Shown: in pieces, positions 7,719-61,745 of the stretch | Position numbering within the stretch: position 1 is the stretch's first letter | Layout: each line of letters begins with the position of its first letter | Made by a program: the position numbers and the translations under genes | Virus record (IMG/VR): IMGVR_UViG_3300017613_001703 | Length of the DNA stretch: 61,754 nucleotides | Reading direction: 5' to 3' (one strand) | From: a virus | Notes under the pieces: generated by a model | The model's input: the letters and a program-made list of their open reading frames with translations, nothing else | What the model was told of the DNA's origin: nothing | Databases searched by the model: none

Positions 7719-7720
7719 CT

Positions 7721-8209: not shown

Positions 8210-8264
8210 TAGCGAATCTGGAGACAGTGGGGAAATAGCGGCAAAAAACTAACGAGGAAATACC

Positions 8265-8318
8265 ATGCCAGACCGAATGGACCCATTGGACAGGATGTTG
8301 ACCGAAGAGACACCTTAA
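8265..8318 (+). pseudogene. 17-codon 5' remnant of the 11631..11963 gene (recombination footprint)
   Basis: Encodes MPDRMDPLDRMLTEETP then a stop, the same peptide as the first 17 codons at 11631. There are 6/51 nt differences and all are synonymous. It ends at the ACACCT junction with duplicated module B. Confidence 0.75.
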
Positions 8319-40599: not shown

Positions 40600-42743
40600 T
40601 GAAACTCCCGAGGGTTAACATTAGAGAAGACTATTTTCAAACGGTCGGCGGTGAGGATCTTATATCCCCGACAATCACCGTTGATCCCGGCAGGGCTATT
40701 ATTACCCAGAATTACGAGCTTGACACCCTTGGTCGTTACCGACTTATCGACGGGTACGAAGCGTTTGACGGTCGGCCTAAGCCGTCAGCGGCAAGCTATT
40801 GGATACTGAACTTCGATGCAGGCAGTGTTGAAATTGACGACGACGATATTTTGACCGGTGCCGGTGGTGCGTCCGGGATTATTATGCGGGTATCGAGGGC
40901 ATCAGGCACCTGGGCAGGTGGTGACGCGGCCGGTTACGTTGTTCTTTTTGGTGTCACGGGCGATTACGTTGATGACGAAACATTGTCTGTGCTTGGCGGG
41001 CCTGTTGCGGTGGCGAATGGGGTGGCCACAGAACGAGGCTATGCTGACGAAACACAGGATACTATCTGGTTATTGGCAGCCGTAGAAGCGACAAGGGGCA
41101 ATATCGCCGGTGTTGCTGGTTCGGGCAATATACTTGGTGTTTGGCAATACAAAGGCGTCAAGTACGCATTTCGTAACAACGCTGGCGGGACTGCCGCGGT
41201 GATGTTCAAATCATCAACATCCGGGTGGACGGCCGTCGATCTTGGTCGATACCTGGCGTTTAGCAGTGGCGGCGTTACCGAGATATCGGAAGCGGATACC
41301 ATCGAGGGCGAAACCGGTGGAGCGACCGCAACGGTTGAGAGGGTTGTGCTACAAAGTGGTACTTGGGCCGGTGGTGATGCAGCGGGGTATTTTATTCTGT
41401 CCGGTCAAACCGGTACGTTTGAGTCAGAAACAGTCAAGGTTGGTGTGAATCTTAACCTTGCCACAATAACCACAGACTCAACGGTGCAGACGCTTTTACC
41501 TGATGGCCGGTACGAATTCGTCAACAAAAACTTCAGGGGTCATTCCAACACGGCCAGGATGTACGGATGCGATGGTGTCAATAAAGGGTTTGAGTTCGAT
41601 GGGACAGTCTATACGCCGATAGAAACCGGGATGACCACAGACAAGCCTGTTCACATAACCGCCCACAAAAAGCATTTATTCTTTATCTTCCCGGGTGGTT
41701 CGATACAACATAGCTCAACAGGTGACCCGCTTACATGGTCTGCCATTACAGGATCGGCCGAATTGGCCCTTGGTGATGAAGGGGTGGCTTTTGTTTCCAT
41801 GCCGAACACCTTAGCGATCTTCACCAGGAACACCACGCATATCCTTTATGGATCGTCAACCGATGATTGGGATTTAAGGCCACACTCTAACGAGGCGGGT
41901 GCGGTTGAATGGTCGGTGCAAAAAATCGGATTGGGTATTTATTTGGATGACAGGGGCCTGACTTCCCTATCAGCCGTTCAGGAATACGGTGATTTCAAGG
42001 CGAACACGTTATCAAAATATGTTGACCCGTTTTTAAAAACGATGATGGGCAATGTACAGAGTTCGGCCAGGGTGAAAAGTAAAAACCAGTATCGTCTATT
42101 CTTCGATGACCTTCAGGTTTTAACGCTCAATGTCGAAGGAAACAAGGTGATCGGATTCACTAGGCAATTTTACGATCACTTGCCCGTTTGCGTTTGTTCC
42201 TCCGAGAATACCTCGGGAGAAGAGGAGATTTTTTTTGGCTCTACAGACGGGTACGTTTACGAACTGGACAAGGGAACTTCTTTTAACGGCGACCCGATAG
42301 AAGCAATGGCGAAGTTCCATTTCAACCACTTGAAGTCTCCAAGACGAAGAAAGCAGATACGCGGGATTGTTTTAGAGCTTGCCGCACCGGCTGACACTTA
42401 CTTGAGCGCAAATGTAGAATTCGATTATGGAGAAACGGCCAATGCTGGAGTTATCTTCAGCACTGAGTCACAGGGCGGCATTTGGGGTGTGGCGAATTGG
42501 GGCGAGTTTTATTGGGACGGTGGCAGTAAAAGTTCGCAACCTCTTGATGTAGATGCGGAATGTATGAATTTTTCGCTCACTGTTTATTATTCTGGTGTAT
42601 GGGAATTACAAGAGGATGATCCGATATTAGGGACCGGCTTTTTTCCTGCAGTTTTTGGAGGGCTTGAAGGCCTGACCGGAGCGGTTCCCCATACTCTACA
42701 GGGTTATATTGTCCTTTACGATTTAAGGAGCCTTCAACGATGA
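40596..42743 (+). CDS. nozzle / tail tubular protein B-like (715 aa from ATG 40596), assigned by position
   Basis: ATGA overlap, plus size and synteny. No motif recognised. Confidence 0.45.
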   Translation: MMKLPRVNIREDYFQTVGGEDLISPTITVDPGRAIITQNYELDTLGRYRLIDGYEAFDGRPKPSAASYWILNFDAGSVEIDDDDILTGAGGASGIIMRVSRASGTWAGGDAAGYVVLFGVTGDYVDDETLSVLGGPVAVANGVATERGYADETQDTIWLLAAVEATRGNIAGVAGSGNILGVWQYKGVKYAFRNNAGGTAAVMFKSSTSGWTAVDLGRYLAFSSGGVTEISEADTIEGETGGATATVERVVLQSGTWAGGDAAGYFILSGQTGTFESETVKVGVNLNLATITTDSTVQTLLPDGRYEFVNKNFRGHSNTARMYGCDGVNKGFEFDGTVYTPIETGMTTDKPVHITAHKKHLFFIFPGGSIQHSSTGDPLTWSAITGSAELALGDEGVAFVSMPNTLAIFTRNTTHILYGSSTDDWDLRPHSNEAGAVEWSVQKIGLGIYLDDRGLTSLSAVQEYGDFKANTLSKYVDPFLKTMMGNVQSSARVKSKNQYRLFFDDLQVLTLNVEGNKVIGFTRQFYDHLPVCVCSSENTSGEEEIFFGSTDGYVYELDKGTSFNGDPIEAMAKFHFNHLKSPRRRKQIRGIVLELAAPADTYLSANVEFDYGETANAGVIFSTESQGGIWGVANWGEFYWDGGSKSSQPLDVDAECMNFSLTVYYSGVWELQEDDPILGTGFFPAVFGGLEGLTGAVPHTLQGYIVLYDLRSLQR

Positions 42744-46352: not shown

Positions 46353-47432
46353 ATGGGTTTAGATTGGACAGCGGGACTCTTGGGTGCAGCGGCCGGTGGC
46401 GCGAACGCGGTTGACAAGCTTTCTGAGGAACGGCGCAGGGAACTTGCCGAACAACTGAAGCGGGAAGCCCTGGAAGCCATTGCGGTAAGGTCTGATGAAC
46501 GCCGGCACGGTTACGACAAGTCGTTGCAAAAGACTGACATCGAATCGAGTGAAAAGATTGCCGGCGAGCGTAACGACACCAGCCGAGAAATTGCCGGTGA
46601 ACATGACGCTACCAGCCGGGAGATTGCTCAGACACGGCAGAACAACGCCTATAACATTGCCGAGGCAAGAAACACCGTTCTAAAAGACCTTGAGGCGATG
46701 CGTCAGGAAACGGATAAACTAAAGCTTGGTTCGACTGAAGAAAACACTAATGCACGCATGGTGCAGGCAAGGACAGCCGCCTTTAAAGAAGTCGGGAATA
46801 TTGTTGAACGCGGAGGATCCCTTGACGAAATAAATTCGCTCCTATCCCCTTTTAACGTTATGTATAAAATGGGCGTTATTAAGAAGGGAACAGAGGGTGG
46901 ATGGCTACAAAACGGGAGCATTTACGACAAAGGGGAACCCGATGTTACTGGTTTGGTTCTGGTAACGACAGACGGTAAGCCGGTGGGTGGCACTGAAGGA
47001 GGCGCACCGCAAACCGGCCTGAGCCCTTTTTTGTCGGATCTTATCGGTGATCCAGGAGGGGAAACCGGGATAATGTCCGACGAGCCCGGGACGGCGCAGG
47101 CTGCCGAGAGCGCACCGCCAAAAGAGGCTCAGTCCAGGTCACCAGTATCTACCGAGACTGCAGCACCAGAACGGAAAGGCCTTTTAGAGACAGGGGGGCC
47201 AGCACCAAAAGGTCTACCCGAGGATATGGCCGATTGGGATGTAACCACCAAAACAGTGAACGGTAAGAAAGTCCCGGTTGTTATTACTGATTCGGGACCG
47301 GTGGAGTTAACCCAGGAAGAATACGAGTTGTGGAAAAAGTGGCAGGCTGGTCAAGAGCCATCCGGCGTAACCGCTTTGAAGAATGCAAGAAACATAAACG
47401 AAACACCCAACCCCGGACCGAGGCCTTTTTAA
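46353..47432 (+). CDS. hypothetical structural protein (359 aa), internal-virion candidate
   Basis: Abuts the giant gene. Charged helical N-terminus and Pro/Gly-rich middle. Confidence 0.6.
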   Translation: MGLDWTAGLLGAAAGGANAVDKLSEERRRELAEQLKREALEAIAVRSDERRHGYDKSLQKTDIESSEKIAGERNDTSREIAGEHDATSREIAQTRQNNAYNIAEARNTVLKDLEAMRQETDKLKLGSTEENTNARMVQARTAAFKEVGNIVERGGSLDEINSLLSPFNVMYKMGVIKKGTEGGWLQNGSIYDKGEPDVTGLVLVTTDGKPVGGTEGGAPQTGLSPFLSDLIGDPGGETGIMSDEPGTAQAAESAPPKEAQSRSPVSTETAAPERKGLLETGGPAPKGLPEDMADWDVTTKTVNGKKVPVVITDSGPVELTQEEYELWKKWQAGQEPSGVTALKNARNINETPNPGPRPF

Positions 47433-50400
47433 TTGGAACCGCAATACGATTGGCAGACCATCCAGAGCAGCCCTGAATATTGGGATTTAAAACCTGAACA
47501 AAGGGCTCTTGCAAAAGCTGAATACTGGAAGCGATACGTTGAACCGTCCGAAGAACTGAAAGCGTACTCCCCGGAAAAGCAGGAACTCGCCAAGTCCAGG
47601 TTTTTGGAACCGGAAAACTACGTTCCTTATGAGCGTGGCTTTATCGGTGATGTTGGTTCGAGGCTTGCGCGAGGCGGTGTAGGCCTGCTTGAAAGTGTTG
47701 GTGGGGCTATGCGTCTTGCCGATGCGGATCCTACCCAGGAAACCGGGATAGTTGCCAAGGCTGGCAAGAGCCTGGCCGACTTTGCGGAAAGAACCAGGGA
47801 AGGCAGCGACTTTCTAAAACCGGACATTTCCGAAGCGACCGGAGCCGAGGGTGTTGTAAAGCGTGGTTTTGGTGGTGCTGTTGAAAGTGCCATCCCTTCA
47901 CTGGCTCCACTGGCCGGTACGATAGCCGGTGCCAAGGCTGGCGGTCTTTTGGGAACGGCACTCGCCGGGCCTGCTGGCACCCTGCCCGGCACGATCATCG
48001 GTGGCGGGATAGGTGGTATCGGGACCTTGTTTGCTACGTTTGGGTTGGGTCAGTACCAAACCACTTATGACGATACGGTGTCCGAGCTTACCGGTAAGGG
48101 CGTATCCCCGGAAGAAGCGGACATCAAGGCCAGGAAGAACGCGCTTGTTTCAGCTACAGCAGAGGCCGGTGGCGAACTGATTGGCGACCTGGCAGCCATG
48201 ACCTTCTTTGGCGTGTTCGGCGGCCAGGCGGCAAAACAACCGTTGAAGCTGACCATCAAGCAACTGTTGGGCGCCGGCAAGGTCGGATTCGCAAAAGCAA
48301 TAGCCAAATCCGTACCGTTTGAAGTCGGTTCGGAAATGGGCACCGCATATTTTCAGGCCAAGGCCGCGCAAGAAGCGGGTGTCTCGACACTTCCCCCGGG
48401 CGAGGCAATGGCCGAGGCTGTTCTTCCTGCAGTATTCCTTTCCTTAATGTTCGGTGGCGCTGTCCATGGCATGAACCATATCGAGGCCACCAACATCTAT
48501 AACGGTCTGAACTCCAAGGATCCAGAAACCCGGATTCGCGCGGCCGAGTCTATTTCATTGAGGATTAAAGACAAGGAGGAACGGCAGCAGTGGGCGAACA
48601 TCGCCACCGGTTATATTGATTCTGGCGAACAAATGCCACTGGACAAGCCGATCATCGATTTCGCCATCCAGAAAAAAGAGGATGACGGTGGCAAGACGGC
48701 TGACATCCAGAGTGCAACATCTGTTGACGAAGCCCTAAAGGCTTTTGAAGATGCGACCAGACCGCTTGCTCCATCTATCGCTGCCCTAACCGATCCACTG
48801 TACCAGGACAGACTCCAAAGACAGGGGATGATTGATCGAGAGTGGGGTTACGGTCCCGAGTCCGACATTCAGAGGCAAGCACAGTTTCCGGCGCAGACTC
48901 CCGAGGAACAGGCGGCCATGGAAGCTGCCATTGTTGAGCAGCGTAATAAGGGCCCGCGTGAACAGGCTTTAAAAGCAGCGGGTTTGCTGCAGACCTCCGG
49001 TGAAATACCCAGCCAGGGTGTTGACGAAGCGCAGCAGCGCAGGGAAGTCGGCCGGGCCGCCCTGAAATATCCCAAGCCGGAAACACCGACCGGGATAGCG
49101 TTTCCCGAAACCGGGCCTACTCCCGATCGTGTGCCGCCCGGGATGGAGAGGACCGGTGCCTGGACGCATGATCCGGTAGGTGATTATTGGAAAGGCGTTG
49201 CTGCTAAAGAAGGTTTGCTTGAGTCGGCCGCCGAGCCTGAACGTGACTTGACCGAATATTGGGCTAATGTACGGGAAAAGTACGGACTGCAGGAAGAAAC
49301 ACCCGAGCCGCCACCGGTTGACACATCCGATGCAGAGTTTAAAGCGTGGGAACAGAAAGCCCAACGGGGTTTGACCGAAGAAGAAAAGGCCGAGTTTGCC
49401 GCCGAGATAGAAAAAGCGTCTGAATACAAAGGCATAATATCCGGCAAGGGGGAAGACGGCAAGACGGTCAAGCCTGCGCCTGCCGGGAAGAACGTCAAGG
49501 GAATCGTGGTTGAAGAGGAGTTTGAACCGACATCAAAAGATGAGTTAATAGAAAAATATCGCATCTATGAACGTGAGTTTGACAAAAAGATCAAGGAACA
49601 CGGAAGCGTTAGCGCAGCAGAAACACATGCGCTTGCATCTTCTGGACTGTTGCAGGAAGGTGTTGCTGCGGCAAGACATCATTTAGGTTTGCCAAATACA
49701 ATGAAGCCAGGGACGCCTTTAATGGAACGGGAAAAACCCACCCCCCCCATCAAAGGCCCCCAGACCAAGAAAGAAAAGGCGGCCAAGGCAACAGGAGTGC
49801 GTCGTGGTGAAGTCGGTGGGAAGATGCGCGAGGGCGAAGTTGTTATAACTTCTTCTGGCAGAAAAACGTCACCGTTCCCCAAAGTATCGTTTGGCACAAA
49901 CCGCAAGGCCACCCTCACAGTTAGGAGGGGAGAACAGTGGTTAATTAAAGAAGCTGCCGAAGAAGCAAAATCAAGGGGTGACGGATTTAACCAGCGCAGC
50001 TTTGAACAAGACATTGGTGTTAAAAATGTCCCGCAGGCCAGCAAGGATTCAGCAGAGGAATACCTTTTTGGCGAACAACCGGAAATACCTAAAAGCATTT
50101 TAAAGCCGCTGATACCGAAAGAACCTATCAAAGGCCCAACCTCAAAGAAAGAAAAGGCGCTGAAGGAATACCGTGACTATGTTGCCGCCCTTTCCACCGA
50201 ACAGCGCGAGGCGGTTTCCGACCTGATTGAAAAGGAACCGAAGCGACCGTCCGGGGCGCTGTTTAAGTTGCGGAAGGCTGTTGATGCGGCGAAACCGAAA
50301 AAGGCAGCGACAGAACCAAAGGCGCCTAAAACTGCTATCCCTGTTCAAGATAAAGATTTAAAAACGATACAAGAAATAACAGACCGAATAAAATCTATTG

Positions 50401-53400
50401 AAAAACAACGTGATGAATTAGAGCCCCCTGTTGAACATCACAAGTTTGCTGATTTTGAAAAAAGACTTGCTCGATTTACGAAAAGGCATGATTTTTTGTG
50501 GGCAAAACGGGCGAAACTTTTGTCTGAACAGAAAAGCCAGAAAGACACGCCGGGACCGGAAACCAAAGAGCCCAAAGCACCGGCCAGTAAGCCAAAGTAC
50601 GGCGAGAAGAACAAACTTTTCACCAAGGATTCCGCAGATGCGGCCCGTGAATTGTTACGGAAAAAGCTCGGCCAGGTCAGCACAGGGCTTGACCCTGAAC
50701 TAGTTCAGGCCGGTATCCAGCTTGCAGGGTATCATATTGAAGCCGGTGCGCGATCTTTTGGTGATTATGCAGCAGCCATGATTGCCGACCTCGGGAATGC
50801 GGTTAAGCCTTACCTCCGTGGATGGTATGAAGCAGTCCGGTATTATCCCAGCTTTGACGCAAAGGGTATGACGGAAGCGGCTGACATAAACGAAAAAGAC
50901 TTGACCGACACCAAAAAAGTGATTAACAATAAGGAAGAAAAGGAGGTGCCTGATGGAACGCTACGCGAACCAACTGAGGAACCACCTGAAGGAGAACAAG
51001 CAGGCGATGTTTCTGGAACTGTTGAAGGCGAAACGCCTGGATCAACATTGCCGGGACCGGGGGGCCGAGGCAGAAAAGGAACTTCACGAAATGACGGCGG
51101 CAGGGATGCCGGACTTCATGGCGAACGAGATCGTGGTCAAGAACCTGCTGACAATGTAGATTATTCGATAACCCCCGATGATGCTCTCGGCGCAGGTGGA
51201 CCGAAGCAAAAATATAAAGATAATGTAGCCGCTATCCGGGTTTTAAAAGACCTCGGACCCCGCAAGGCTACACCCGAAGAACAGGCCATTCTTGTTAAAT
51301 ACGTTGGATGGGGTGGCCTGCCACAAGCTTTCCCAAAGCCTAACGGCGATGTTTCAACCGGTTGGCAATCCGAAGTCGACGAACTCCAAGACGTTTTATC
51401 GTCCGAAGAATACGCGGCAGCGCGGAAAAGCACCCAGGACGCCCATTACACCAGCGCCACCGTAGTTGGTAAGATTTACGATGCCATTAAAAAGTTTGGG
51501 TTTAAGCAAGGCAAGATCCTTGAGCCAGCCATCGGCACGGGTAATTTTGTCGGCCTCATGCCTGCATCTATTCGCAGCAGGTCGAGCATAACAGGGATTG
51601 AGCTTGACCCCATCACGGCGACCATAGCAGATAAGCTTTACCCGAAACAGCGCATTGTTAATTCTGGGTTTGAATCAGTTTCAATAGCGCCGGGTAGTTT
51701 CGATCTTGCTATTGGCAACCCGCCTTTTGGTGATAAAAAGCTATTCGATTCACAACATCCTGAGTTTAAATCCTTCTCTATTCATAATTTCTTTTTCGCC
51801 AAAAGCCTTGTCGGTTTGCGTCCTAACGGCCTTTTGTCCATGGTGGTAAGTTCATCAATGATGGATAAGCGCGGAATGGACCAGCGTAAATGGTTGGCAG
51901 GCAGGGCCGAGCTTGTTGGGGCAATCAGGCTCCCGAACACTGCTTTTAAAAGCAATGCCGGCACAGAAGTTACAACTGACATCCTGTTCCTACGAAAACT
52001 GATGGACGGCGAACAAATCCCAGACGCTAAATGGATAGATTTAAAACCGATAGAAGCAGAGGACGGTACAAGCTACCTCGTTAATGAATATTTTGCCGAT
52101 CATCCTGAAATGGTTTTAGGTGTACCGGTAAAAAATAAGCTCCACCCGGGCGAAGTCGTTGACGGCGTTTATAAGGGAGTCGCCGGGTTTGCCCCGAATG
52201 AGGGTGTTGACCTGGGAGAAGCGATTGATGCGGCTGTATCGTTTTTGCCGAAAGATATTTATAGGGCAGGACAAACAGTTGAAGAAGTGCAACGCCCTGA
52301 GATTCTTGTTTCAGACGTTGGTTTTTCGCAACCTTACGGATATACGGTTGACGATAGCGGCAATGCTGTCCGGCGCCTACCGGATGTAAACGGCGAGCAT
52401 GTGTTTGAGCCGGTCCTGTACGCGGGTAAACCGTTGGCTGGCAAGCGCCTTGAAAAATTTAAAGGGCTCTTGAAAATAAGGGACGCGGTTAGAACGCTAA
52501 TCCGGGCAGAAATTGCAGACGAAAGCAAAGCGACTCTTGACCGGTACAGAAAAAAACTGAATAGGGTTTATGATGGTTTCGTAAAAAAGCACGGCTATAT
52601 TTCAGTGCCGGCTACCTCGAAAGTTTTAAATCAGGATCCGACTGACCTTCCCCTGTTGAGATCACTGGAGGAAAAATTCGATTCGGGTGTTTCCGCTGCT
52701 GTTGCCAGAAGGACCGGAGAGAAACCGCGTGGTCCGAGAGCAAATAAATCTTCTATTTTTACAGTAAGAACCCGGGAACCATACCGTGAAGCAACAACCG
52801 CGGCAAACGCTAAAGATGGTCTTGCGATTGTCTTGCGCGAAGACGGCTATGCTGACATTGACCGGATTGCAGAACTGACAGGGAAGACGGTTGACGAAGC
52901 GGTAAAGGACCTGGCCGACATAATTTTCAAGAACCCGGTGACTGAAGGATATGAGACTTCAGACATCTACCTTTCTGGTAACGTAAAGAAAAAACTCACG
53001 CAGGCTAAGGAAGCACGATCAAGGGATGCAGTTTATAACGATAACGTGGAAGCGTTAAAAAAGGTTCTCCCTAAAGATGTACCGGTCGAGAAAATCCACT
53101 TTGAAGTCGGAGCTACTTGGATTCCGGCCCAGGTCTACGAAGATTTTTCAAGGGAAGTCCTTGAGCGAAATGCAACGGTTCAATATATCGAGGATGTTGG
53201 TGTCTGGAACATCAAAGTTGAAAAGGGAATAAGCCCTTTTGACAGTACCCGGAGATCGGCGGCAAAAATATACACCGACTTAGTTACCGGTTCTGATGTT
53301 GCTGTTTATGAATATATAGATAAAAAACGGGTTTTCGATAGGGAAGGCACCGTAGACGCGCAACAGAAAGCGAAAGAAATCAATAGTGCCTTTCAGGATT

Positions 53401-56400
53401 GGGCGTTGAACGATACAGACAGAAGAAAGATAATATCTAAGAATTTCAACGATAAAGTAAATACGACCATTGATGGCAAGTTTGATGGCAGCCACATGGT
53501 TTTTCCTGGTATGGGAGTTATAACCACTGGCGTCAAGCGCGACGATCAACTAATGGCCCACCAAAAGAATGTTGTTTGGCGGCTCATTCAAAAAGGGAAG
53601 GGTCTTGTCGATCATGTTGTCGGAAGCGGGAAAACCTTTCTTTCAATAGCAACCGGGATTGAAATGAAGCGCATGGGCCTTTTAAAGAAACCCATGTATG
53701 TTGTCCCTAACCATCTTGTAGGGCAGTGGGCAATGGATTTCCAACGGCTTTATCCTGGCGCAAAAGTCCTTGTGATTGACAAAACAAACTTTGTTAAAAG
53801 CAAGCGGCAAGAATCTATGGGCCGAATCGCCACGGGTGAGTGGGATGCGGTGCTTGTGGCTCATTCCAGTTTTGGTTTTGTAAAGATGCCGTATGAATAT
53901 GAAAAGAAATTCTATGCCGACCAGATTGCCCAATACGAAGCGGCAATAGTCGCACTTTCCAAGTCAGAAGGGAAAAAGTCTCGGTCCGTTAAACAGATGG
54001 AGAACGCCAAGGATAAACTCAAATCGAAGATGCAAGCCTTGGCTAATCGACCAAAGGATGCAACGGTTGACTTCTCCGAGCTTGGTGTTGATGCCCTGTT
54101 TGTGGATGAGGCGCATGAGTTTAAAAACCTGTTCTATGCAACTAAACGCAACAGGGTAGCAGGGCTTGGGAACCAAAAAGGAAGCCAAAAAGCCTTTGAT
54201 ATGTTCGTTAAGACTCAGTTTATTAGCGAAACGAACAACGGCAGAGGGGTATTCTTTTTAACCGGCACACCCGTTTCAAACTCCATTTCTGAAATGTATA
54301 CAATGATGCGGTATCTTGAATATGACCGCATGAAAGAAATGGGTATCCGACATTTTGACCAGTGGGCAAATATGTTTGCGTCTGCTGTTTCAGATTGGGA
54401 GGTTGACCCATCTGGGACACGGTATCGTCTTCAGACAAAAATGGATTTCGTTAATGTCCCGGGATTAATGGCGTTTTATAAAGACTTTGCCGATGTGGTT
54501 AGCACAGACGATTTGCAAAAATGGGCCAAAGAACGTGGGCAGACTTGGCCTATTCCAGACATAAAGGGTGGAAAGCCTGAAACGGTTGTTGCTGAAAAGT
54601 CGGACCTGCAAAAGAACTTTATGGATTGGATTGTCCAACGGTTTGATAATATGCCGTCCGATCCAAAAGAAGATAATCCGCTGAAAGCAACCGGCGAGGC
54701 AATGAAGGGATCGCTCGATATTAGGTTGATTAATCCATCCTTACCTGACCATCCGGGTTCCAAAGTCAACCTTGCGGTAAAGAATATTACAGCAACTCAT
54801 AAAAAATGGAACGCCCGGAAGGGAACTCAGCTTGTTTTTTGTGACTTGAGCGTACCAAGCAAAGCAAAGGGTAAACACACTGCTGAAATAAAAGCACTTC
54901 AGCAACGAATCCGCAAACTTGAAACAAAACTTGAAGCGGAAACAGATCCAGAAAAGCTGTCAAGTATTGAAGAAGAATACACGAAACTGACAGACAAGTT
55001 TGAAAAATATTCGCCTGCCGAGCTTATGGCCGCGAGTTCAAAGTTTTCAGTCTATGACGATGTAAAGGCAAAGCTGATTTCTAACGGGATACCTGAAAAC
55101 GAGATTGCTTTTATCCATGACGCTAACACCGATCTTCAAAAAGAAGACTTATTTTCAAGGGTTAGGAATGGTCGTGTTCGTGTGCTAATCGGGTCAACAA
55201 GCAAAATGGGCGCTGGCATGAACGTTCAAAATCGTTTAGTTGCCTTGCACCACCTTGACGCACCATGGAGGCCGAGCGATCTTGAACAGCGTGAAGGCCG
55301 TATTATCAGGCAGGGCAACAAGTTTTTCATGGAGGCCCTAAAGAAAGGCGAGAAATTTGCTGTTGATATTTTCCGATACGCCACAAAAGAAACGCTGGAT
55401 ACAAGGCGCTGGCAGATAATCGAGCGCAAAGCGAAAACGATTGAACAGCTCAGAACTGGCAACCTTCAATGGGGTGAAGTGATTTCAGACACTACGGGTG
55501 CCGCCGCGAACGCCGCAGAAATGAAGGCGGCGAGTAGCGGGAACCCGCTTATACTTGAAGAAATCCAGGCAAAAAAAGACCTTGAAACTCTTGAGATGGA
55601 AAAGCGGTCAGACCGGTCAAAACGTTTTGGGTTCAAAAATACTATCGAGCATAGGGACAAACTTGAAAAGAGTTATAAAGGCGACCGCAAGACCATTGAA
55701 AAAGACATAAAATTTATTGAAAACCATCCGAGAGATAACACCCCAGAAGGTTGGTCGGTTTTCATCAACGAAAAACAATACACGGCAAAGGGCCTTATAA
55801 GTGTTCCTAAAAAATACGAAGGCAAGGACAAGGGCGAAAAGAAAGCCAACGCGAAAGCGATTAAAGATGCAACAGAAAACAATGCCAAAGCCCTGAAGAA
55901 AGCAAAGGCCGATTTTGAAGTTGGCATTAAAAAAGAACTTGTCCCGTATCTTGTAAGGGACTTGAAGGCTAATCTTGCAGATTTTACCGTATCAATTAGA
56001 GGAATAGAGTTTGATGTAACCAGGAACCATTATTCACCAACTATAAATTTTGAGCCAAGCATTGGTGTGGCGCAAATTTTTAGCCGTGCGTTATGGCACA
56101 GTTACGGGCCCTCTTATGATGTGAGAGATTTGAATTCAGACGGTCTTTTTGTTGAAGGGCTTATTATCCGGTTGCACAATGCTATCGGCAGCATGGTAAA
56201 TGATAGAGAAGTCGCCGAACAAAACATGAAAAAGAATCGGGAAGAAGCGAACCGGGAAGCCGACATTGCCGATCGTGGCCTCAAGAAACCTCCGTTTGAT
56301 GAAACCAAGATTCAAGATGCCCGGAAAAAGCACACGGACATTTTAACTCAACTTCAAACAGAAAGCGCAAACGAGCCTACCGAGGTTCCTGATTTTTCAA

Positions 56401-59400
56401 TGTGGACCGATCAGGTGATCGAACGGTCAGCGAGTCCGACACCTACCCCGGGATACTATGAACGGGCCAAGGGACCCAGCGGCGAAATGGAATGGCTTCC
56501 CGCAATAGGGTCTAAAAAGATAGAAATTTACCCTTGGGTAGAAACTTTTGTAAGAAAAAAGGAAATCGGCACTAAAAATATTTGGTCTGTTTCCGAGGCG
56601 TCAACAGGTTCAAAGTTTCCTGGTTCATTCGGTACTCGTAAGGCCGCTGTATCTGATGCGAAAAGACAACTTGATAATGTAGGAAAAGATGCTTTTCTTG
56701 ATATGATAAAGAGCCATATCGCTAATATAGGGGAGTCTCCATGGAGTACTGGCAAGCCGAAACTCTCCACCAAGACCGACCGCCGCACCCATCCCAAAGA
56801 TCCTGGCGGAGCAGAGTACACAGAACAAACCCGTCGTAGTCCGTTAACGCCAAGATTACGCAGAAAAGACCGGCGCGGCGACACGATTACCGCTAAACAA
56901 GTAGCGGCAGAATTTCGCAAGATGGGGTTTGGTTCAAATATTGCCGGTGATAGTGTCACCGTCAGAACTCCGACCGGCAGTATAGCCATAAACGTTGCTG
57001 ACAGCATCGTAACGGACGACGGTGCCACGATTTCATTCTCTTACGGGCGCGAGGCCAAGGCGGGGGAGAAAGTCGCAGGGTCGTACTTTAATGGCGCTAT
57101 TGACCTGAAGCGCAATTTAGCCGACAAATTTACGTTATCGCACGAACTGTTCCACCACATGAAAACGGCGGGGCTATTCAATCCTGCTGAAGAAGCCCTG
57201 TTGGCAAAGCACGGTGACGAAGAAGCGCAGGCCCGTTGGATTGAAGGACAGTTGCGAAATCGAAAGAATACTCGCGGTATTGCCGGCAAGCTGGTTCAGA
57301 AGGTTCGGGACTTTATTGACGCGATCGTCAATTCATTCATCAGGACGGAACGAGGCATATTGAGGGATGTCGAGGCCGGTAATATTCTGCAGCGCCAGGG
57401 AACCCCGAACGCCAATGAAACACAGCACTCCACCATAGCCGGTCGGTGGCAGTCGCAGATGGCCAACTTCCTTTCCGACAAACTCCCCGGTTCAGGTAGT
57501 CCAAAACAGATTTTACAGACGTTGGATTCTTGGGCCAAGAAGGGGTTGATAAAGTCTGAGGAACTGGAATGGTCGGGGTTGCGGGAGTGGCTTGCAGAGC
57601 AAGATGGCAAGGTCGGGAAACAGGACATCCTCGACTTCCTGGCGGCGAATCATGTTCAGGTTAAGGAAGTGGTGAAAGGGAAGCAGTCCAAATACACTAT
57701 AGATGATATCGAAAACGGGGAATTAGAGCAATTAGAAGACGGGACTTGGGCTGTATGGCAGGGTGAATTTGCAGAACAAGTGGGCGAAGGTGAAACCGAA
57801 CAAGCCGCAATTGATGATGCTGTTAAGACTCTCGGAATAGCCGGTATGTCTGTAGACGACACCAAATTCTCCCAATACCAGGAACCCGGCGGGGAAAATT
57901 ATAAAGAGCTTCTGCTTACGCTGCCGGAAACGAAGCAAAAAGTCGAAATCCCAAAAATAGCAGAGACGAAACAGGGGTACGATGATAGATGGTTTGTGTC
58001 TGACCAAAATGGGGATCAAATAAGTGGTGATGGTCACCCAACGAAAGAGGGAGCAATTGAGAAAGCCAAAGCTCATATTGATAGATATACTAAAGAGATA
58101 GCTCCGCAAAAATCTCAATACAAATCCCGCCACTTCGACGAGCCAAACGTATTAGCGCATGTCCGCTTCAACGAACGCACCGGGCCTGACGGTGAGCGGG
58201 TTTTGTTTATTGAGGAAATCCAGAGTGACTGGCATCAGGAGGGGCGTAAGAAGGGGTACAAAGGTAAAGGATTGCCGCCTGGTTACCGGGTATCGGGGTC
58301 ACCAAATGATTTGGGCCGTTTTGTTGTTTACGATAGTAATGGAGTGATTATACCCTCCCCACGCGGACACGCCACAGAACAAGAAGCCATTGCTTATGCA
58401 GTGAAGAAAATCGACGTACCCCCCAACGCCCCCTTCAAAAAGACCTGGCCCATGCTCGCCATGAAGCGCATGGTCCGCTACGCAGCGGAGAACGGCTTCG
58501 ATCAGATTGCTTGGACACCGGGGGAGGTGCAGGCTGATAGATATGATTTTAGTAAACAGATAAAAGAAATTTTCTATCGTCAACATAGCGATCAGTCTGA
58601 TAAATATGAGTTTAAAGCAACTGCTCATAGTGGTGAAACCGTAATTGAAGAAGTTGGTATACCGTTATCGCGCATTGAAGAAATATCGGGGAAAGAAATT
58701 GCCGAAAAGATAAAAAACGGAAAGGGCACGGACAATTCTGCCGCCCTTAGAGAATGGGGAGAACAGACCGGGGTTAACCTTAATGTTCAGGCTGGCCAAG
58801 AAGGAAGGGTACTCTCCGGCCTCGACCTAAAAGTAGGCGGCGAAGGCATGAAGGGTTTTTACGACAAAATTCTGCCTGCTGCCGCCAACAAATTCTTCGG
58901 CAAGAAGGCTTGGGGTGGGGCGCGGGTGGGAACGGCAAAAGTAGCCGCTGATGATACTAAATACACCGTTGAAAAATACGGTGAAATTTACAGGATACGT
59001 CAAAACGGTGTGTTGTTGCACGGCCCCGGATTTAAATCCGCAGAGGCCGCATGGTCAAGGGTAGAAAAGGCCCAAGAATCCGATTTAAAAGAAGTCTGGT
59101 CCCTCCCCATAACCCCCCAGATGCGGAGCAAGGCGTTGTACGAGGGGATGCCGATGTTCAGCACAAAGATCATCGACACCCTAACCAACGAAGTCGGCAG
59201 CAGCCAGCTGGCCACGGACATCTACAACTTTGCGAACGGCCTGGTACAATCAGGAATTAAATCGTTCAAGGTTTTTACGGCCAGAATTTACAATAAATTC
59301 AAGGAAGTTTACAAAAAGATCAAACCTCACTTAAAATCAATGTGGGACACCCTGAACAATCAGGGCGGCTACATCGTACTCCAAGAGGGCGAACAGAAAC

Positions 59401-61745
59401 ACTCCTACCAGGAAACGCTTGAGCCCGTTACAGATCAGGACGTTATTGAAAACCGGAAATCGAAACGGAACGTCAAGCTTGCTGCAGAAACAACTATTGC
59501 CCGGATCGGATCGGAAATGGCCGAGGGGATTGATAAGTTTACCGGGGCCATATCGACCAGGTTGGGCAACATCAGTAAAAAAATAAAATCCAAGATACGG
59601 CGGCTGGACTTTGACATCAACAAAAAATCAGCCGCGGACGTTGAGGCAGTCATGCCTCTGCTTAAAAAAGCCCGGAAGAAGATGACCCGGGACGATTACG
59701 CAGATTGGGACTATGTCCGTAAAAACTCAGCCATCGACAAGATAAATGAGCTAATCGACAAGTATGGCCTGCGAACCGAATACGATAAGTACCGGGAGGT
59801 TTTAACCCGGTTGCGGCGTGAGGGTCTTGATGTGGGCCTTGAGATAGGGCTCATACAAGAATACGCGCCCAGGATATTAAAGGACCCCAAAGGTTTTCTG
59901 ACCGCCATTGGCAAGGATCCTGATTGGGGGGTTTACAGCGAACAGATAAAGAAACGGGCTAAAGAGCTAGATATGGACATGGAGGATATGGACATCGACC
60001 AGAAAGCGGCGATCGTATCCAACATGATCCTTGGCGGTTACTCAGGCCTGGGTGGTGTGCCAGCAACGAAAGAAAGAAAGCTCAAAAAAATACCTGCCTA
60101 TCTGAATCGATTCTACATGGATTCGGACGGGGCCCTGATGCGGCATATCTACGGGATGCGGAAACTAATCGAGGGTAGAAAGTTTTTCGGTAAGATCCCG
60201 AAGAAGGTTGCCGAGATGCGGCGGCGGTTGCGCCTGGCCGAAACTCACATGCGGAAGCTTCAGGATGAAATGAAAACCGCGTCCACCGAAGATAAAGCCA
60301 AGATGAAAAAACGGTGGAACAAACTGTTCGGGCTCAAAAAACAGTACCAGGCGTATCTTGATAAATACTCGATGCAACGTGATTACCGGCAGAATATCGG
60401 TGCCTATGTGGTGGAACTGATCGAATCGGGCGAGATCCGGCCTCACCAAGAACGTGTTGTCAATGAGATCCTAAACGCGAGATTCCACGAAAAAGGCGCC
60501 TACGGAGTCGTACAGGCGTACAAAAACCTTTCCTATATGGATACCATGGGTTCACCCATCAGCGCCTTGACACAGATAGGTGACATGGCTTGGGCGGCCT
60601 TTGACGGTGGACTTATAAAGGCACTGAAACATGCCGGCCGATCGATACTTAAAAAATCACGGATTACCAAGGAGGATGTTGGGATAGAACGAATCGCCCA
60701 AGAGTTTGAGGACGCCGGATCCTTGGGCAAGGCGGTTTCGTTTGTGTTCAAATGGGTAGGCCTGGAAAAGATTGACTCGATCGGTAAAGAGGCTTTGCTG
60801 AACACGGCCTTTGAAAAATATAAAAAGCAGGCCAAGAGCAACCCGGACAAGTTGAAGTCCCAAATATCAGAAATCTTTGAAGATGAAACCGATCAGGTTA
60901 TCGAAGACCTGAATAATGACGAAATTACCGACAACGTAAAGCTATTGGTTTACAGCAGGCTGCTTGACTTTCAACCGGTGGCCCTGTCCGAGATGCCTGA
61001 AAAATACCTGACGGCCGGTAATGGTCGCCTGTTTTACATGCTGAAAACATTCACGTTAAAGCAGTTTGATATTTATCGCAACGAGATTTACAACAAATTC
61101 AAGAACGGCGATCGGGCAGACAAGGTTCAGGCCATAAAGAATCTTGTGAGGCTCACAATGTTTTTTGTGATTGCCAATGCTGGCGCCGACGAACTGAAGG
61201 ATTGGGTGCTTGGCAGAAAGACCGACTTTGAGGACAGGGCGGTGGATAACATGCTACGCCTGGCCGGGGTATCGAAGTTTTACACATGGAAAGCCCGGAC
61301 GGAGGGTATCGGGTCCGCTACCCTGAAACTGATACTGCCGCCTGTGAAGTTCATCGATTCGCTGACCAAGGACATCACAAAGGCCGGGGATGAAAAGGGC
61401 CTGGAAACTGTTGGATCCATACCGCTGGTTGGTAAGTGGGCATACTGGCGCATGGGCCGCGGGGTAAGTAAGCGTGACGATCTTTGGGACATTCGGCTTA
61501 GAAAAGAAAAGCGCCGGCTGAACGATATTAAAAACCGGATGGAAGAAGCCCCCAACCAAAACGCCTTCAGGCAAAAATATAACCGGGAACTATCGAGACT
61601 CCGTAGGGCAAACGCGCTGCAGGGCAGGTTGAACAATTTTAAACAAAGAATCAACCGGTTAAAAAAGTCGGGTGGAAACAAGGCCGATATTGACAGGCTT
61701 GCCAATAAAAGGATAGACTTCATTAAACAATTTCTTAAAGAATAA
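47433..61745 (+). CDS. giant polyvalent-type protein (4,770 codons): Gly-rich TM segments, N6-adenine DNA MTase, SNF2-family helicase, HExxH metallopeptidase and further conserved modules; putative ejected internal virion protein
   Basis: Uninterrupted 14,313-nt frame, TTG start directly after the preceding TAA. Motifs are listed in the sub-features. It sits where T7-like phages carry gp16. Confidence 0.85.
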   Translation: MEPQYDWQTIQSSPEYWDLKPEQRALAKAEYWKRYVEPSEELKAYSPEKQELAKSRFLEPENYVPYERGFIGDVGSRLARGGVGLLESVGGAMRLADADPTQETGIVAKAGKSLADFAERTREGSDFLKPDISEATGAEGVVKRGFGGAVESAIPSLAPLAGTIAGAKAGGLLGTALAGPAGTLPGTIIGGGIGGIGTLFATFGLGQYQTTYDDTVSELTGKGVSPEEADIKARKNALVSATAEAGGELIGDLAAMTFFGVFGGQAAKQPLKLTIKQLLGAGKVGFAKAIAKSVPFEVGSEMGTAYFQAKAAQEAGVSTLPPGEAMAEAVLPAVFLSLMFGGAVHGMNHIEATNIYNGLNSKDPETRIRAAESISLRIKDKEERQQWANIATGYIDSGEQMPLDKPIIDFAIQKKEDDGGKTADIQSATSVDEALKAFEDATRPLAPSIAALTDPLYQDRLQRQGMIDREWGYGPESDIQRQAQFPAQTPEEQAAMEAAIVEQRNKGPREQALKAAGLLQTSGEIPSQGVDEAQQRREVGRAALKYPKPETPTGIAFPETGPTPDRVPPGMERTGAWTHDPVGDYWKGVAAKEGLLESAAEPERDLTEYWANVREKYGLQEETPEPPPVDTSDAEFKAWEQKAQRGLTEEEKAEFAAEIEKASEYKGIISGKGEDGKTVKPAPAGKNVKGIVVEEEFEPTSKDELIEKYRIYEREFDKKIKEHGSVSAAETHALASSGLLQEGVAAARHHLGLPNTMKPGTPLMEREKPTPPIKGPQTKKEKAAKATGVRRGEVGGKMREGEVVITSSGRKTSPFPKVSFGTNRKATLTVRRGEQWLIKEAAEEAKSRGDGFNQRSFEQDIGVKNVPQASKDSAEEYLFGEQPEIPKSILKPLIPKEPIKGPTSKKEKALKEYRDYVAALSTEQREAVSDLIEKEPKRPSGALFKLRKAVDAAKPKKAATEPKAPKTAIPVQDKDLKTIQEITDRIKSIEKQRDELEPPVEHHKFADFEKRLARFTKRHDFLWAKRAKLLSEQKSQKDTPGPETKEPKAPASKPKYGEKNKLFTKDSADAARELLRKKLGQVSTGLDPELVQAGIQLAGYHIEAGARSFGDYAAAMIADLGNAVKPYLRGWYEAVRYYPSFDAKGMTEAADINEKDLTDTKKVINNKEEKEVPDGTLREPTEEPPEGEQAGDVSGTVEGETPGSTLPGPGGRGRKGTSRNDGGRDAGLHGERDRGQEPADNVDYSITPDDALGAGGPKQKYKDNVAAIRVLKDLGPRKATPEEQAILVKYVGWGGLPQAFPKPNGDVSTGWQSEVDELQDVLSSEEYAAARKSTQDAHYTSATVVGKIYDAIKKFGFKQGKILEPAIGTGNFVGLMPASIRSRSSITGIELDPITATIADKLYPKQRIVNSGFESVSIAPGSFDLAIGNPPFGDKKLFDSQHPEFKSFSIHNFFFAKSLVGLRPNGLLSMVVSSSMMDKRGMDQRKWLAGRAELVGAIRLPNTAFKSNAGTEVTTDILFLRKLMDGEQIPDAKWIDLKPIEAEDGTSYLVNEYFADHPEMVLGVPVKNKLHPGEVVDGVYKGVAGFAPNEGVDLGEAIDAAVSFLPKDIYRAGQTVEEVQRPEILVSDVGFSQPYGYTVDDSGNAVRRLPDVNGEHVFEPVLYAGKPLAGKRLEKFKGLLKIRDAVRTLIRAEIADESKATLDRYRKKLNRVYDGFVKKHGYISVPATSKVLNQDPTDLPLLRSLEEKFDSGVSAAVARRTGEKPRGPRANKSSIFTVRTREPYREATTAANAKDGLAIVLREDGYADIDRIAELTGKTVDEAVKDLADIIFKNPVTEGYETSDIYLSGNVKKKLTQAKEARSRDAVYNDNVEALKKVLPKDVPVEKIHFEVGATWIPAQVYEDFSREVLERNATVQYIEDVGVWNIKVEKGISPFDSTRRSAAKIYTDLVTGSDVAVYEYIDKKRVFDREGTVDAQQKAKEINSAFQDWALNDTDRRKIISKNFNDKVNTTIDGKFDGSHMVFPGMGVITTGVKRDDQLMAHQKNVVWRLIQKGKGLVDHVVGSGKTFLSIATGIEMKRMGLLKKPMYVVPNHLVGQWAMDFQRLYPGAKVLVIDKTNFVKSKRQESMGRIATGEWDAVLVAHSSFGFVKMPYEYEKKFYADQIAQYEAAIVALSKSEGKKSRSVKQMENAKDKLKSKMQALANRPKDATVDFSELGVDALFVDEAHEFKNLFYATKRNRVAGLGNQKGSQKAFDMFVKTQFISETNNGRGVFFLTGTPVSNSISEMYTMMRYLEYDRMKEMGIRHFDQWANMFASAVSDWEVDPSGTRYRLQTKMDFVNVPGLMAFYKDFADVVSTDDLQKWAKERGQTWPIPDIKGGKPETVVAEKSDLQKNFMDWIVQRFDNMPSDPKEDNPLKATGEAMKGSLDIRLINPSLPDHPGSKVNLAVKNITATHKKWNARKGTQLVFCDLSVPSKAKGKHTAEIKALQQRIRKLETKLEAETDPEKLSSIEEEYTKLTDKFEKYSPAELMAASSKFSVYDDVKAKLISNGIPENEIAFIHDANTDLQKEDLFSRVRNGRVRVLIGSTSKMGAGMNVQNRLVALHHLDAPWRPSDLEQREGRIIRQGNKFFMEALKKGEKFAVDIFRYATKETLDTRRWQIIERKAKTIEQLRTGNLQWGEVISDTTGAAANAAEMKAASSGNPLILEEIQAKKDLETLEMEKRSDRSKRFGFKNTIEHRDKLEKSYKGDRKTIEKDIKFIENHPRDNTPEGWSVFINEKQYTAKGLISVPKKYEGKDKGEKKANAKAIKDATENNAKALKKAKADFEVGIKKELVPYLVRDLKANLADFTVSIRGIEFDVTRNHYSPTINFEPSIGVAQIFSRALWHSYGPSYDVRDLNSDGLFVEGLIIRLHNAIGSMVNDREVAEQNMKKNREEANREADIADRGLKKPPFDETKIQDARKKHTDILTQLQTESANEPTEVPDFSMWTDQVIERSASPTPTPGYYERAKGPSGEMEWLPAIGSKKIEIYPWVETFVRKKEIGTKNIWSVSEASTGSKFPGSFGTRKAAVSDAKRQLDNVGKDAFLDMIKSHIANIGESPWSTGKPKLSTKTDRRTHPKDPGGAEYTEQTRRSPLTPRLRRKDRRGDTITAKQVAAEFRKMGFGSNIAGDSVTVRTPTGSIAINVADSIVTDDGATISFSYGREAKAGEKVAGSYFNGAIDLKRNLADKFTLSHELFHHMKTAGLFNPAEEALLAKHGDEEAQARWIEGQLRNRKNTRGIAGKLVQKVRDFIDAIVNSFIRTERGILRDVEAGNILQRQGTPNANETQHSTIAGRWQSQMANFLSDKLPGSGSPKQILQTLDSWAKKGLIKSEELEWSGLREWLAEQDGKVGKQDILDFLAANHVQVKEVVKGKQSKYTIDDIENGELEQLEDGTWAVWQGEFAEQVGEGETEQAAIDDAVKTLGIAGMSVDDTKFSQYQEPGGENYKELLLTLPETKQKVEIPKIAETKQGYDDRWFVSDQNGDQISGDGHPTKEGAIEKAKAHIDRYTKEIAPQKSQYKSRHFDEPNVLAHVRFNERTGPDGERVLFIEEIQSDWHQEGRKKGYKGKGLPPGYRVSGSPNDLGRFVVYDSNGVIIPSPRGHATEQEAIAYAVKKIDVPPNAPFKKTWPMLAMKRMVRYAAENGFDQIAWTPGEVQADRYDFSKQIKEIFYRQHSDQSDKYEFKATAHSGETVIEEVGIPLSRIEEISGKEIAEKIKNGKGTDNSAALREWGEQTGVNLNVQAGQEGRVLSGLDLKVGGEGMKGFYDKILPAAANKFFGKKAWGGARVGTAKVAADDTKYTVEKYGEIYRIRQNGVLLHGPGFKSAEAAWSRVEKAQESDLKEVWSLPITPQMRSKALYEGMPMFSTKIIDTLTNEVGSSQLATDIYNFANGLVQSGIKSFKVFTARIYNKFKEVYKKIKPHLKSMWDTLNNQGGYIVLQEGEQKHSYQETLEPVTDQDVIENRKSKRNVKLAAETTIARIGSEMAEGIDKFTGAISTRLGNISKKIKSKIRRLDFDINKKSAADVEAVMPLLKKARKKMTRDDYADWDYVRKNSAIDKINELIDKYGLRTEYDKYREVLTRLRREGLDVGLEIGLIQEYAPRILKDPKGFLTAIGKDPDWGVYSEQIKKRAKELDMDMEDMDIDQKAAIVSNMILGGYSGLGGVPATKERKLKKIPAYLNRFYMDSDGALMRHIYGMRKLIEGRKFFGKIPKKVAEMRRRLRLAETHMRKLQDEMKTASTEDKAKMKKRWNKLFGLKKQYQAYLDKYSMQRDYRQNIGAYVVELIESGEIRPHQERVVNEILNARFHEKGAYGVVQAYKNLSYMDTMGSPISALTQIGDMAWAAFDGGLIKALKHAGRSILKKSRITKEDVGIERIAQEFEDAGSLGKAVSFVFKWVGLEKIDSIGKEALLNTAFEKYKKQAKSNPDKLKSQISEIFEDETDQVIEDLNNDEITDNVKLLVYSRLLDFQPVALSEMPEKYLTAGNGRLFYMLKTFTLKQFDIYRNEIYNKFKNGDRADKVQAIKNLVRLTMFFVIANAGADELKDWVLGRKTDFEDRAVDNMLRLAGVSKFYTWKARTEGIGSATLKLILPPVKFIDSLTKDITKAGDEKGLETVGSIPLVGKWAYWRMGRGVSKRDDLWDIRLRKEKRRLNDIKNRMEEAPNQNAFRQKYNRELSRLRRANALQGRLNNFKQRINRLKKSGGNKADIDRLANKRIDFIKQFLKE
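47889..48470 (+). other. giant protein: Gly/Ala-rich hydrophobic (membrane-inserting) segments
   Basis: AIPSLAPLAGTIAGAKAGGLLGTALAGPAGTLPGTIIGGGIGGIGTLFATFGLG; GELIGDLAAMTFFGVFGG; AVLPAVFLSLMFGGAVHG. Confidence 0.6.
50953..51159 (+). CDS. embedded out-of-frame ORF (68 aa) inside the giant gene; candidate overlapping gene
   Basis: AAAGGAGGTG (50938..50948), 4-nt spacer (CCTG), ATG 50953. The peptide MERYANQLRNHLKENKQAMFLELLKAKRLDQH...AGMPDFMANEIVVKNLL is helical and not junk-like. The main frame here is E/G/P/R low complexity. Confidence 0.4.
   Translation: MERYANQLRNHLKENKQAMFLELLKAKRLDQHCRDRGAEAEKELHEMTAAGMPDFMANEIVVKNLLTM
51160..52150 (+). other. giant protein: N6-adenine DNA methyltransferase module
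   Basis: KYVGWGGLPQAFP (about 51296). Motif I ILEPAIGTGNFVG (51516..51554). Motif IV AIGNPPFGD (NPPF at 51717..51728). Confidence 0.85.
53540..55450 (+). other. giant protein: SNF2/DEAD-like helicase module
   Basis: Motif I VGSGKTF (~53619..53639), motif II VDEAHEFKN (DEAH 54105..54116), motif III FLTGTPVSNS, motif V GSTSKMGAGMNVQ, motif VI LEQREGRIIRQGN (~55281..55319). Confidence 0.85.
56990..57330 (+). other. giant protein: zincin-like metallopeptidase module
   Basis: LSHELFHHM (HELFH at 57141..57155). Confidence 0.55.
58130..58560 (+). other. giant protein: conserved module of unknown function
   Basis: HFDEPNVLAHVRFNERTG..RVLFIEEIQSDWHQEGRKKGY and TWPMLAMKRMVRYAAENGFDQIAWTPGEVQADRY look like domain cores seen in other very large phage/plasmid proteins (from memory, unnamed). 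Confidence 0.4.

Follow-up and report, generated by a model that had tools for sequence, protein, structure and literature searches.

Phage polyvalent proteins were described by Iyer, Burroughs, Anand, de Souza and Aravind (2017, J Bacteriol 199:e00245-17; PMC5512222), who proposed that they are packaged and injected. In that account the dyad of a methyltransferase (MTase) and an SF2 helicase, whose archetype is DarB, and a zincin metallopeptidase serve as hub domains. Autoprocessing was also proposed: P1 DdrB is cleaved to ~76 kDa before packaging, whereas the N4 virion RNA polymerase, which likewise has such a peptidase domain, enters the particle uncleaved (PMC5512222). Here we analyse a giant gene of 4,770 codons plus stop at positions 47433..61745 (+) of the IMG/VR record IMGVR_UViG_3300017613_001703, a stretch of 61,754 nucleotides referred to below as the window. 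The window is one metagenome-type viral contig from a phage known from its sequence alone and with no assigned host. An earlier note on this DNA had proposed that the gene encodes a polyvalent protein of DarB-type architecture, which is borne out by an E=0 match to a DarB-like profile and by colinear similarity to P1 DarB, and independent homologues were found for every module of the protein. The giant thus belongs to the 2017 class as a further example and does not represent a novel type of system.

Like the phage polyvalent proteins, the giant joins many unrelated enzymatic domains, adjoins virion genes and contains the MTase-SF2 dyad together with a zincin-like HExxH motif. Its homologues carry LPD38, ART-PolyVal, LPD22/23, RadC, ParB and InPase domains in other regions. 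Unlike the catalogued members, the giant itself has no Pfam LPD or metallopeptidase (MPTase) match, and its N-terminal module, its C-terminal module and a module marked by the motif EEIQSDWHQ (the EEIQ module) have no detectable Pfam model.

The closest parallels in size and setting are the 'DarB-like'/PLxRFG giants Bcep22 gp75, JC1 gp69, PEp14 gp27, SopranoGao gp06 and F116/H66 gp60, which are, like the present gene, open reading frames (ORFs) of more than 3,500 amino acids (aa) in the virion module of a ~60-kb podovirus. JC1 gp69 (4,515 aa, 22.1% of its genome) was detected by mass spectrometry with 51 unique peptides from virions purified on caesium chloride (PMC9144972). PEp14 gp27 (4,914 aa) and SopranoGao gp06 (4,369 aa) occupy the same kind of slot, and the record of H66 gp60 (3,787 aa) bears the note 'verified by mass spectrometry'. 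With 14,313 nt, or 23.2% of a 61,633-bp circle, the present gene is comparable to these proteins, which span 3,800-4,900 aa and ~20-24% of a ~60-kb genome. Larger examples exist in uncultivated phages: contig L010 (IMGVR_UViG_3300005512_000259) encodes a complete ORF of 5,043 aa with the same MTase-helicase-EEIQ order, and the largest relative in the protein library has 5,194 aa. We also observed polyvalent ORFs of at least 5,057-5,075 aa in L006, L028 and L070; these reach the locus edge and are larger than the giant under study. The size, genome share and location that the earlier note considered unusual are therefore shared with JC1 gp69, PEp14 gp27, SopranoGao gp06 and the ORFs above 5,000 aa.

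The central MTase-helicase is common to the DarB-like giants and the present protein at 38-45% identity, and the F116-like phages additionally share its domain at aa 773-928. The ends differ. The DarB-like giants have a lytic transglycosylase at the N-terminus and PLxRFG at the C-terminus, whereas the giant has another N-terminal module and an all-alpha C-terminal module; Pfam detected no SLT domain in it, and its N-terminus is unlike those of PEp14 and SopranoGao, which show an SLT motif. Tailspike genes lie 3' of the giant, in contrast to the lysis cassette found 3' of giants of the PEp14/SopranoGao type. By BLASTP, the EEIQ module and the module containing the motif HELFH had zero matches in PEp14 and SopranoGao.

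In P1 DarB, as in the giant, an N6-adenine MTase is followed by an SF2/SNF2 helicase, with significant similarity in all three blocks. DarB, unlike the giant, is a protein of 2,255 aa from a myovirus, its identity to the giant is 21-27%, and the giant carries ~2,900 residues of other modules beyond the DarB-like part. A DarB-type antirestriction protein is expected to shield incoming DNA in cis against type I restriction and to rely on DarA, Hdf and DdrA for its packaging. The P1 antirestriction system also needs DarA, Hdf, DdrA, DdrB and Ulx (PMC9144972). Finally, the giant resembles T7 gp14-gp15-gp16 in lying between adaptor/nozzle and fibre genes, in its large size and in its presumed ejection with the DNA, and is unlike them in having no profile or structural similarity and no transglycosylase domain.

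Reading frame, start codon and DarB-like core

The giant gene is real and its ORF intact. It runs in a single frame from a TTG start to a TAA stop, with no internal stop in the ORF listing, so the uninterrupted frame of about 23% of the genome noted earlier stands. Since about 3 of every 64 random codons are stops, an open frame of 4,770 codons cannot be a product of chance. The terminal 121 nt are the same at both window ends (1-121 and 61634-61754), and the genome is therefore a closed circle of 61,633 bp. This exact overlap, which marks the genome as complete and closed into a circle (or terminally redundant), includes the final ~112 nt of the giant gene. All module junctions recur elsewhere: that from the N-terminal module to the MTase-helicase in P0242, that from the helicase through HELFH to EEIQ in L034, and that from EEIQ to the C-terminal module in both L011 and P0284. 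As these are independent contigs or proteins, their recurrence is evidence against an assembly chimera. The last 21.7 kb of the window had no near-identical counterpart in GenBank phage DNA.

A Shine-Dalgarno-like GAGG (47420..47423, +) precedes the TTG start by 9 nt. The only alternative starts are a TTG at codon 58 and an ATG at codon 93; because this first ATG follows 'RGFIGD' (aa 68-73), a motif kept near the N-termini of homologues, a non-ATG start is required. The preceding ORF (46353..47432) is in frame with the giant, with one TAA between them that the TTG directly abuts (TAATTG, 47430-47435). Read-through or recoding at this TAA was considered and rejected: TAA is the commonest stop in the genome (16 of 27 ORFs checked), and the TTG with its Shine-Dalgarno-like site comes directly after. 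Such stop/start abutment also precedes the polyvalent genes of the related contigs L084 (TAAATG) and L083 (TAATG), which suggests conserved translational coupling, the upstream proteins themselves being without detectable homology.

The DarB-like core, comprising the MTase, an inter-domain region, the SF2 helicase and a post-helicase region, extends over 51000..56387 (+; aa 1190-2985) and matches the 4,647-position PHROG profile phrog_10089 'DarB-like antirestriction' with E=0. Its identity is 43% to PEp14 gp27 and 38.5% to SopranoGao gp06. By tblastn, matches of 43-45% identity extending over ~1,600 aa were found in Vibrio phage VvAW1, Pseudomonas phage Itty13, Erwinia phages Pavtok and PEp14, Klebsiella phages SopranoGao and LASTA, Agrobacterium phage Atu_ph08 and others. 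The N6-adenine DNA methyltransferase (51408..52001, +; aa ~1326-1523) matches the Pfam models Eco57I (E=1.5e-9) and N6_Mtase (E=1e-4), both above curated cut-offs; GWGG lies at aa 1292, motif I (EPAIGTGNF) at 1364-1372 and motif IV (NPPF) at 1429-1432. The SNF2/SF2 helicase (53550..55322, +; aa ~2040-2630) matches ResIII, SNF2-rel_dom and Helicase_C, again above curated cut-offs, with GSGKT at aa 2064, DEAH at 2225, TGTP at 2277 and QREGRIIRQGN at 2619. Motif I thus precedes motif IV, and the MTase lies N-terminal to the helicase in one polypeptide. BLASTP against P1 DarB gave 27% identity for the MTase (E=5e-21) and E-values of 5e-15 and 6e-9 for the helicase lobes, in colinear order. On this sequence similarity, MTase and helicase are identified as homologous to P1 DarB.

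The earlier identification of both enzymes consequently holds at profile level, and all motifs that it quoted, including HELFH, EEIQSDWHQ and AWTPGE, are present in the modules to which it had assigned them. Scanning the protein as ten overlapping 620-aa segments, Pfam at E<=5 reported MTase and helicase only, with no peptidase, LPD, MPTase, SLT or ART domain; the regions for which a Pfam and LPD-domain scan had been suggested accordingly yielded no LPD domain. NCBIfam gave helicase matches only, all of them sub-threshold, and PLxRFG was not found.

Modules flanking the core

Downstream of the core lies the HELFH module (56760..57437, +; aa 3110-3335), a probable zincin-like metallopeptidase with HELFH at aa 3237. 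Across 24 aligned homologues, the most distant at 20% identity, no residue is invariant except H3237, E3238, H3241, E3264 and A3267; the HExxH motif and a Glu 23 residues downstream constitute the gluzincin ligand set. It is this invariance of HExxH and downstream Glu that makes a zincin peptidase likely. In the AlphaFold2 model the core has predicted local distance difference test (pLDDT) values of 81-94 and is built as helix, strands, HExxH helix, helix and Glu helix, a topology compatible with the minimal zincin topology of Iyer et al. (PMC5512222). P1 DdrB is predicted to be a metallopeptidase of the polyvalent-protein kind, and hhalign aligned the HELFH profile with its HExxH region at E=6e-4, a weak match with a probability of only 28%. 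Neither Pfam, a PDB sequence-profile search nor the top 50 Foldseek matches contained a peptidase, which counts against the assignment. The zincin proposed earlier is plausible on its invariant ligand residues, and no curated profile or structural match confirms it. Foldseek of the combined HELFH and EEIQ model against PDB returned zero matches at E<=0.001; a recurring GNAT-fold theme at E 0.1-1 was insignificant and was not interpreted.

The adjoining EEIQSDWHQ/AWTPGE module (57438..59195, +; aa 3336-3921; ~590 aa) is autonomous and enzyme-like, with EEIQSDWHQ at aa 3594 and AWTPGE at aa 3693. Searching a 5.8-billion-sequence collection at E<=1e-5 gave at least 900 homologous proteins, some of them stand-alone and 520-700 aa long, and at least 600 matching stretches occur in IMG/VR viral contigs. 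About 25 polar residues are near-invariant, among them H3567, H3576, R3578, E3594, E3595, Q3597, D3599, H3601, R3679, D3690, R3703 and D3811. We read these conserved residues as an active-site pattern, and the module is regarded as a further effector enzyme. It has no relatives in Pfam, PHROG, NCBIfam or PDB, the latter also searched by profile with the HELFH and EEIQ alignment.

The ~1,100 C-terminal residues that the earlier note could not assign contain a conserved all-alpha module of 849 aa (59196..61742, +; aa 3922-4770); in nearly every one of 97 homologues, no more than ~60 residues separate its end from the stop. Altogether 89 homologues, with identities of up to 66%, are found in proteins of 800-1,500 aa, where the module follows ART-PolyVal, LPD23, RadC, ParB, GNAT or zeta-toxin domains. 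AlphaFold2 predicts a confident all-alpha domain (predicted template modelling score, pTM, 0.70). In PDB, Foldseek of this model gave zero matches at E<=0.001 and generic helical proteins only, and a sequence-profile search with the C-terminal alignment gave no meaningful match. In BFVD, the model matched a Pseudomonas phage KPP25 protein annotated as 'Structural protein' (E=4.5e-8); the BFVD matches are C-terminal chunks of proteins annotated as polyvalent-domain, PolyVal-ART, RelA/SpoT, nuclease, DNA methylase or MuF-C, and among the weaker ones are a Marinomonas phage CB5A protein named 'Protein inside capsid D' (E=8e-3) and, at E=7e-3, a CPP1m protein annotated as a lysozyme. A divergent PLxRFG/LPD38 domain was considered for this module and could not be claimed, as hhalign of family against family gave a probability of 0.4%; a colinear resemblance between 'YAPRILKD' and 'YVPLYREG' is recorded as a lead only.

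At the other end, the Gly/Ala-rich N-terminal module (47559..48902, +; aa ~43-490) matched 251 representatives in a phmmer search of 1.84 billion representatives at E<=1e-3, in proteins of up to 5,194 aa. For nearly all of the 150 representatives listed, its start falls among roughly the first 130 residues; the one non-fragment exception begins at residue 223. A Kyte-Doolittle scan of the whole protein found only two transmembrane-like segments, both in this module: a hydrophobic glycine-zipper-like segment, IIGGGIGGIGTLFATFGLG (47994..48050, +; aa 188-206), with weak sub-threshold Pfam glycine-zipper matches, and MAEAVLPAVFLSLMFGGAV (48408..48464, +; aa 326-344).

Both terminal modules occur together, with different interiors, in at least 31 of 149 representatives. 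Among the homologues the terminal modules are positionally constrained and the interior cargo varies. Neither end was found in PEp14, SopranoGao or any GenBank phage record. What is new here are the N-terminal, EEIQ and C-terminal modules, which have no counterpart in Pfam, PHROGs or PDB, and this pattern of fixed ends and variable cargo. The LPD22, LPD38, DUF7178, L5_gp82 and ART-PolyVal domains of homologues map outside the shared regions and were not transferred to the giant.

Between the N-terminal module and the core, the ~700 aa described earlier as K/E/P-rich linkers do include such a linker (aa 491-772) and in addition hold two conserved domains. One (49749..50216, +; aa 773-928) is 45-55% identical to domains of the giant virion proteins of F116-like Pseudomonas phages; the other, a small domain 5' of the MTase (50589..50888, +; aa 1053-1152), is 71% identical to its counterpart in P0009 and also occurs in PEp14 gp27. 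A 43-nt direct repeat, with a left copy at 49746..49788 (+; peptide PIKGPQTKKEKAAK) and a 77% identical right copy 378 nt downstream (50124..50166, +), brackets the aa 773-928 domain. The copies lie exactly 126 codons apart and share the peptide PIKGPxxKKEKAxK, and the homologous H66 domain has no such flanks; the repeat could be a cassette-insertion scar, a linker duplication or a pair of processing sites.

Genome context

The giant gene lies inside the virion gene block. The block begins with TerL (29199-30554), portal (30554-32767) and the major capsid protein (36214-37254), followed by an SU10-type head-to-tail adaptor (39916..40599, +; Pfam PF24175, E=2e-11) and a nozzle-sized tail protein of 721 aa (40578..42743, +; phrog_5107), which follows the adaptor as it does in L084. 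Six small proteins without annotation (42740-47432), one of them with a Gly-zipper, come between the latter and the giant; the last is a 359-aa protein of unassigned function (46353..47432, +) in the frame of the giant, beyond the single TAA. Downstream of the giant, across the circular junction, a tailspike block (983..11621) comprises four genes (983-2956, 2922-4826, 5136-7718 and 9792-11621, +; Pfam Laminin_G_3 and Beta_helix) that encode one lectin-like protein and three tailspike candidates with beta-helices, one of the latter having a phrog_4577 tail-protein N-terminus. The order is that of a podovirus-type layout, because the giant is the sole gene of tape-measure size. The earlier placement among tail and virion genes is thereby supported; as to the gp16 position, the slot from adaptor/nozzle to fibres is there and the correspondence is one of positional analogy, since hhalign against T7 gp14, gp15 and gp16 gave probabilities below 1%. 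Homology of the N- and C-terminal profiles to these T7 proteins was rejected on that result.

Relatives L083 and L084 have similar gene layouts, and BLASTP of the neighbouring genes against those of L083 and L084 gave zero homology. The C-terminal module is carried by just 14 contigs of metagenome-assembled genomes and by 0 isolate genomes. L083 itself, a 57-kb Logan contig (SRR21359156; locus 16997-22835) with the same C-terminal module, has a phage structural block that directly adjoins the bacterial flagellar motor genes FliM, FliN, FliL, MotA and MotB, and is either an integrated prophage or a phage with motility genes.

Several features of the surrounding genome deserve mention. The ORFs 44706-45152, 45071-45853 and 45817-46350, just 5' of the giant, overlap at their ends, and a YMGG-type glycine zipper, below threshold in Pfam, lies in the second of them; the small proteins of this stretch (44706-46350) are candidate membrane-active ejection proteins. 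Four large genes of receptor-binding type in a row, one encoding a ConA-like lectin and three right-handed beta-helices, form an unusually rich set for a 61-kb podovirus and suggest a branched or multivalent receptor-binding apparatus. Two blocks of minus-strand ORFs (~13700-20600 and ~24200-28900) show GC and AT skews opposite to those elsewhere in the genome and have almost no PHROG matches; they are presumably an early/regulatory or replication region. The genome has no tRNAs.

Proposed role of the giant and competing explanations

We consider it likely that the giant is one of the phage polyvalent proteins, with a DarB-type antirestriction core at its centre, packaged in the virion and co-delivered with the DNA. 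Virion packaging, injection, antirestriction activity and self-processing are proposed here by homology or analogy. Packaging is put forward because the relatives JC1 gp69 and H66 gp60 were found by virion mass spectrometry and because the C-terminal model matches the KPP25 'Structural protein'. In the mechanism we envisage, the giant would be made late in infection, alongside virion proteins, and a few copies would be packed into the podovirus particle, incorporation and exit being mediated by the N-terminal two-helix and C-terminal all-alpha modules. On infection of the next host it would be ejected into the cell together with the DNA or slightly before it; there the SNF2-type motor may move the linked N6-adenine MTase along the entering genome and so shield that genome from restriction in cis, the role proposed for P1 DarB. 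The HExxH module might cut the polyprotein into working pieces or attack host proteins, and the EEIQSDWHQ module would add another enzymatic activity. Several points weigh against this proposal. The phage is uncultivated, known here from its genes and unassigned to a host; identity to P1 DarB is in the twenties of percent; features of the cultured giants, namely the N-terminal lytic transglycosylase and the PLxRFG/LPD38 C-terminus, were not detected in the giant; and the part given to the terminal modules has their positional constraint as its only basis, no homologue of known function having been found for them.

A somewhat unlikely alternative is that the zincin module, or a head protease, cuts the ORF product during assembly into structural termini and free enzymes, so that no 530-kDa protein is present in virion or host. 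An invariant HExxH+E module placed between cargo blocks, long K/E/P-rich linkers between modules and the existence of the same modules as stand-alone proteins elsewhere would all fit such processing, as would the autoprocessing proposal of Iyer et al. and the cleavage of P1 DdrB (PMC5512222). Yet the N4 virion RNA polymerase is packaged uncut with a peptidase domain of this kind (PMC5512222), cleavage sites are not identifiable from the sequence of the giant, and its peptidase activity is a prediction without a Pfam, PDB-profile or Foldseek peptidase match. It is highly improbable that the ORF arose as a chimera during assembly, or that sequencing errors merged adjacent genes into it: the metagenome-type contig with its 121-nt terminal overlap is indeed available as assembled sequence, and its exact module combination was not met in any other protein found, but the junctions are reproduced independently in P0242, L034, L011 and P0284, protein-level homology continues in one frame across 14.3 kb, and giants with similar module orders, the largest above 5,000 aa, are common.

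We judge it unlikely that the giant is the functional counterpart of T7 gp16, along with gp14 and gp15, in an ejectosome in which the N-terminal helices insert into host membranes and the protein forms or extends a DNA conduit while carrying effectors. The slot between adaptor, nozzle and small proteins on one side and fibres or spikes on the other is suggestive, and the only two transmembrane-like segments fall in a conserved module that is nearly always N-terminal; the weaker BFVD matches of the C-terminal model (CB5A 'Protein inside capsid D' and the lysozyme-annotated CPP1m protein) point the same way, and the six upstream proteins include no other recognisable ejection protein, though one has a Gly-zipper. 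Those same six proteins (42740-47432) could instead form the conduit. The N- and C-terminal profiles of the giant scored below 1% against T7 gp14, gp15 and gp16 by hhalign, the C-terminal model has no PDB counterpart by Foldseek at E<=0.001, Pfam found no lytic transglycosylase domain, and two hydrophobic helices in 4,770 residues make a thin case for a channel. The membrane-channel/ejection N-terminus conducting DNA entry that the earlier note had proposed comes down to these two helices and the position of the gene, and the tests for T7 homology failed.

Returning to the virion-packaged antirestriction protein that we favour, the fixed ends invite a broader and more speculative idea, rather unlikely as it stands. 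The two-helix N-terminus and the 849-aa all-alpha C-terminus might be a cargo-independent delivery chassis of a large uncultivated podovirus lineage, which would anchor the protein in the particle, carry it through the tail into the host and functionally replace the T7-type core proteins, so that nearly any effector could be inserted between them; the EEIQ module, as one such effector, would then be an undescribed enzyme family with members in at least 900 phage-associated proteins.

The giant is of value as a well-resolved example from an uncultivated lineage; in cultured podoviruses, mass spectrometry of virions has detected comparable giants. The EEIQ module nominates an abundant enzyme family for biochemical study, and the fixed-ends pattern offers a hypothesis, open to testing, of the way in which phages might load effector domains of any kind and bring them into the host. 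If the delivery chassis proved true, such proteins would be a natural modular platform for protein injection.

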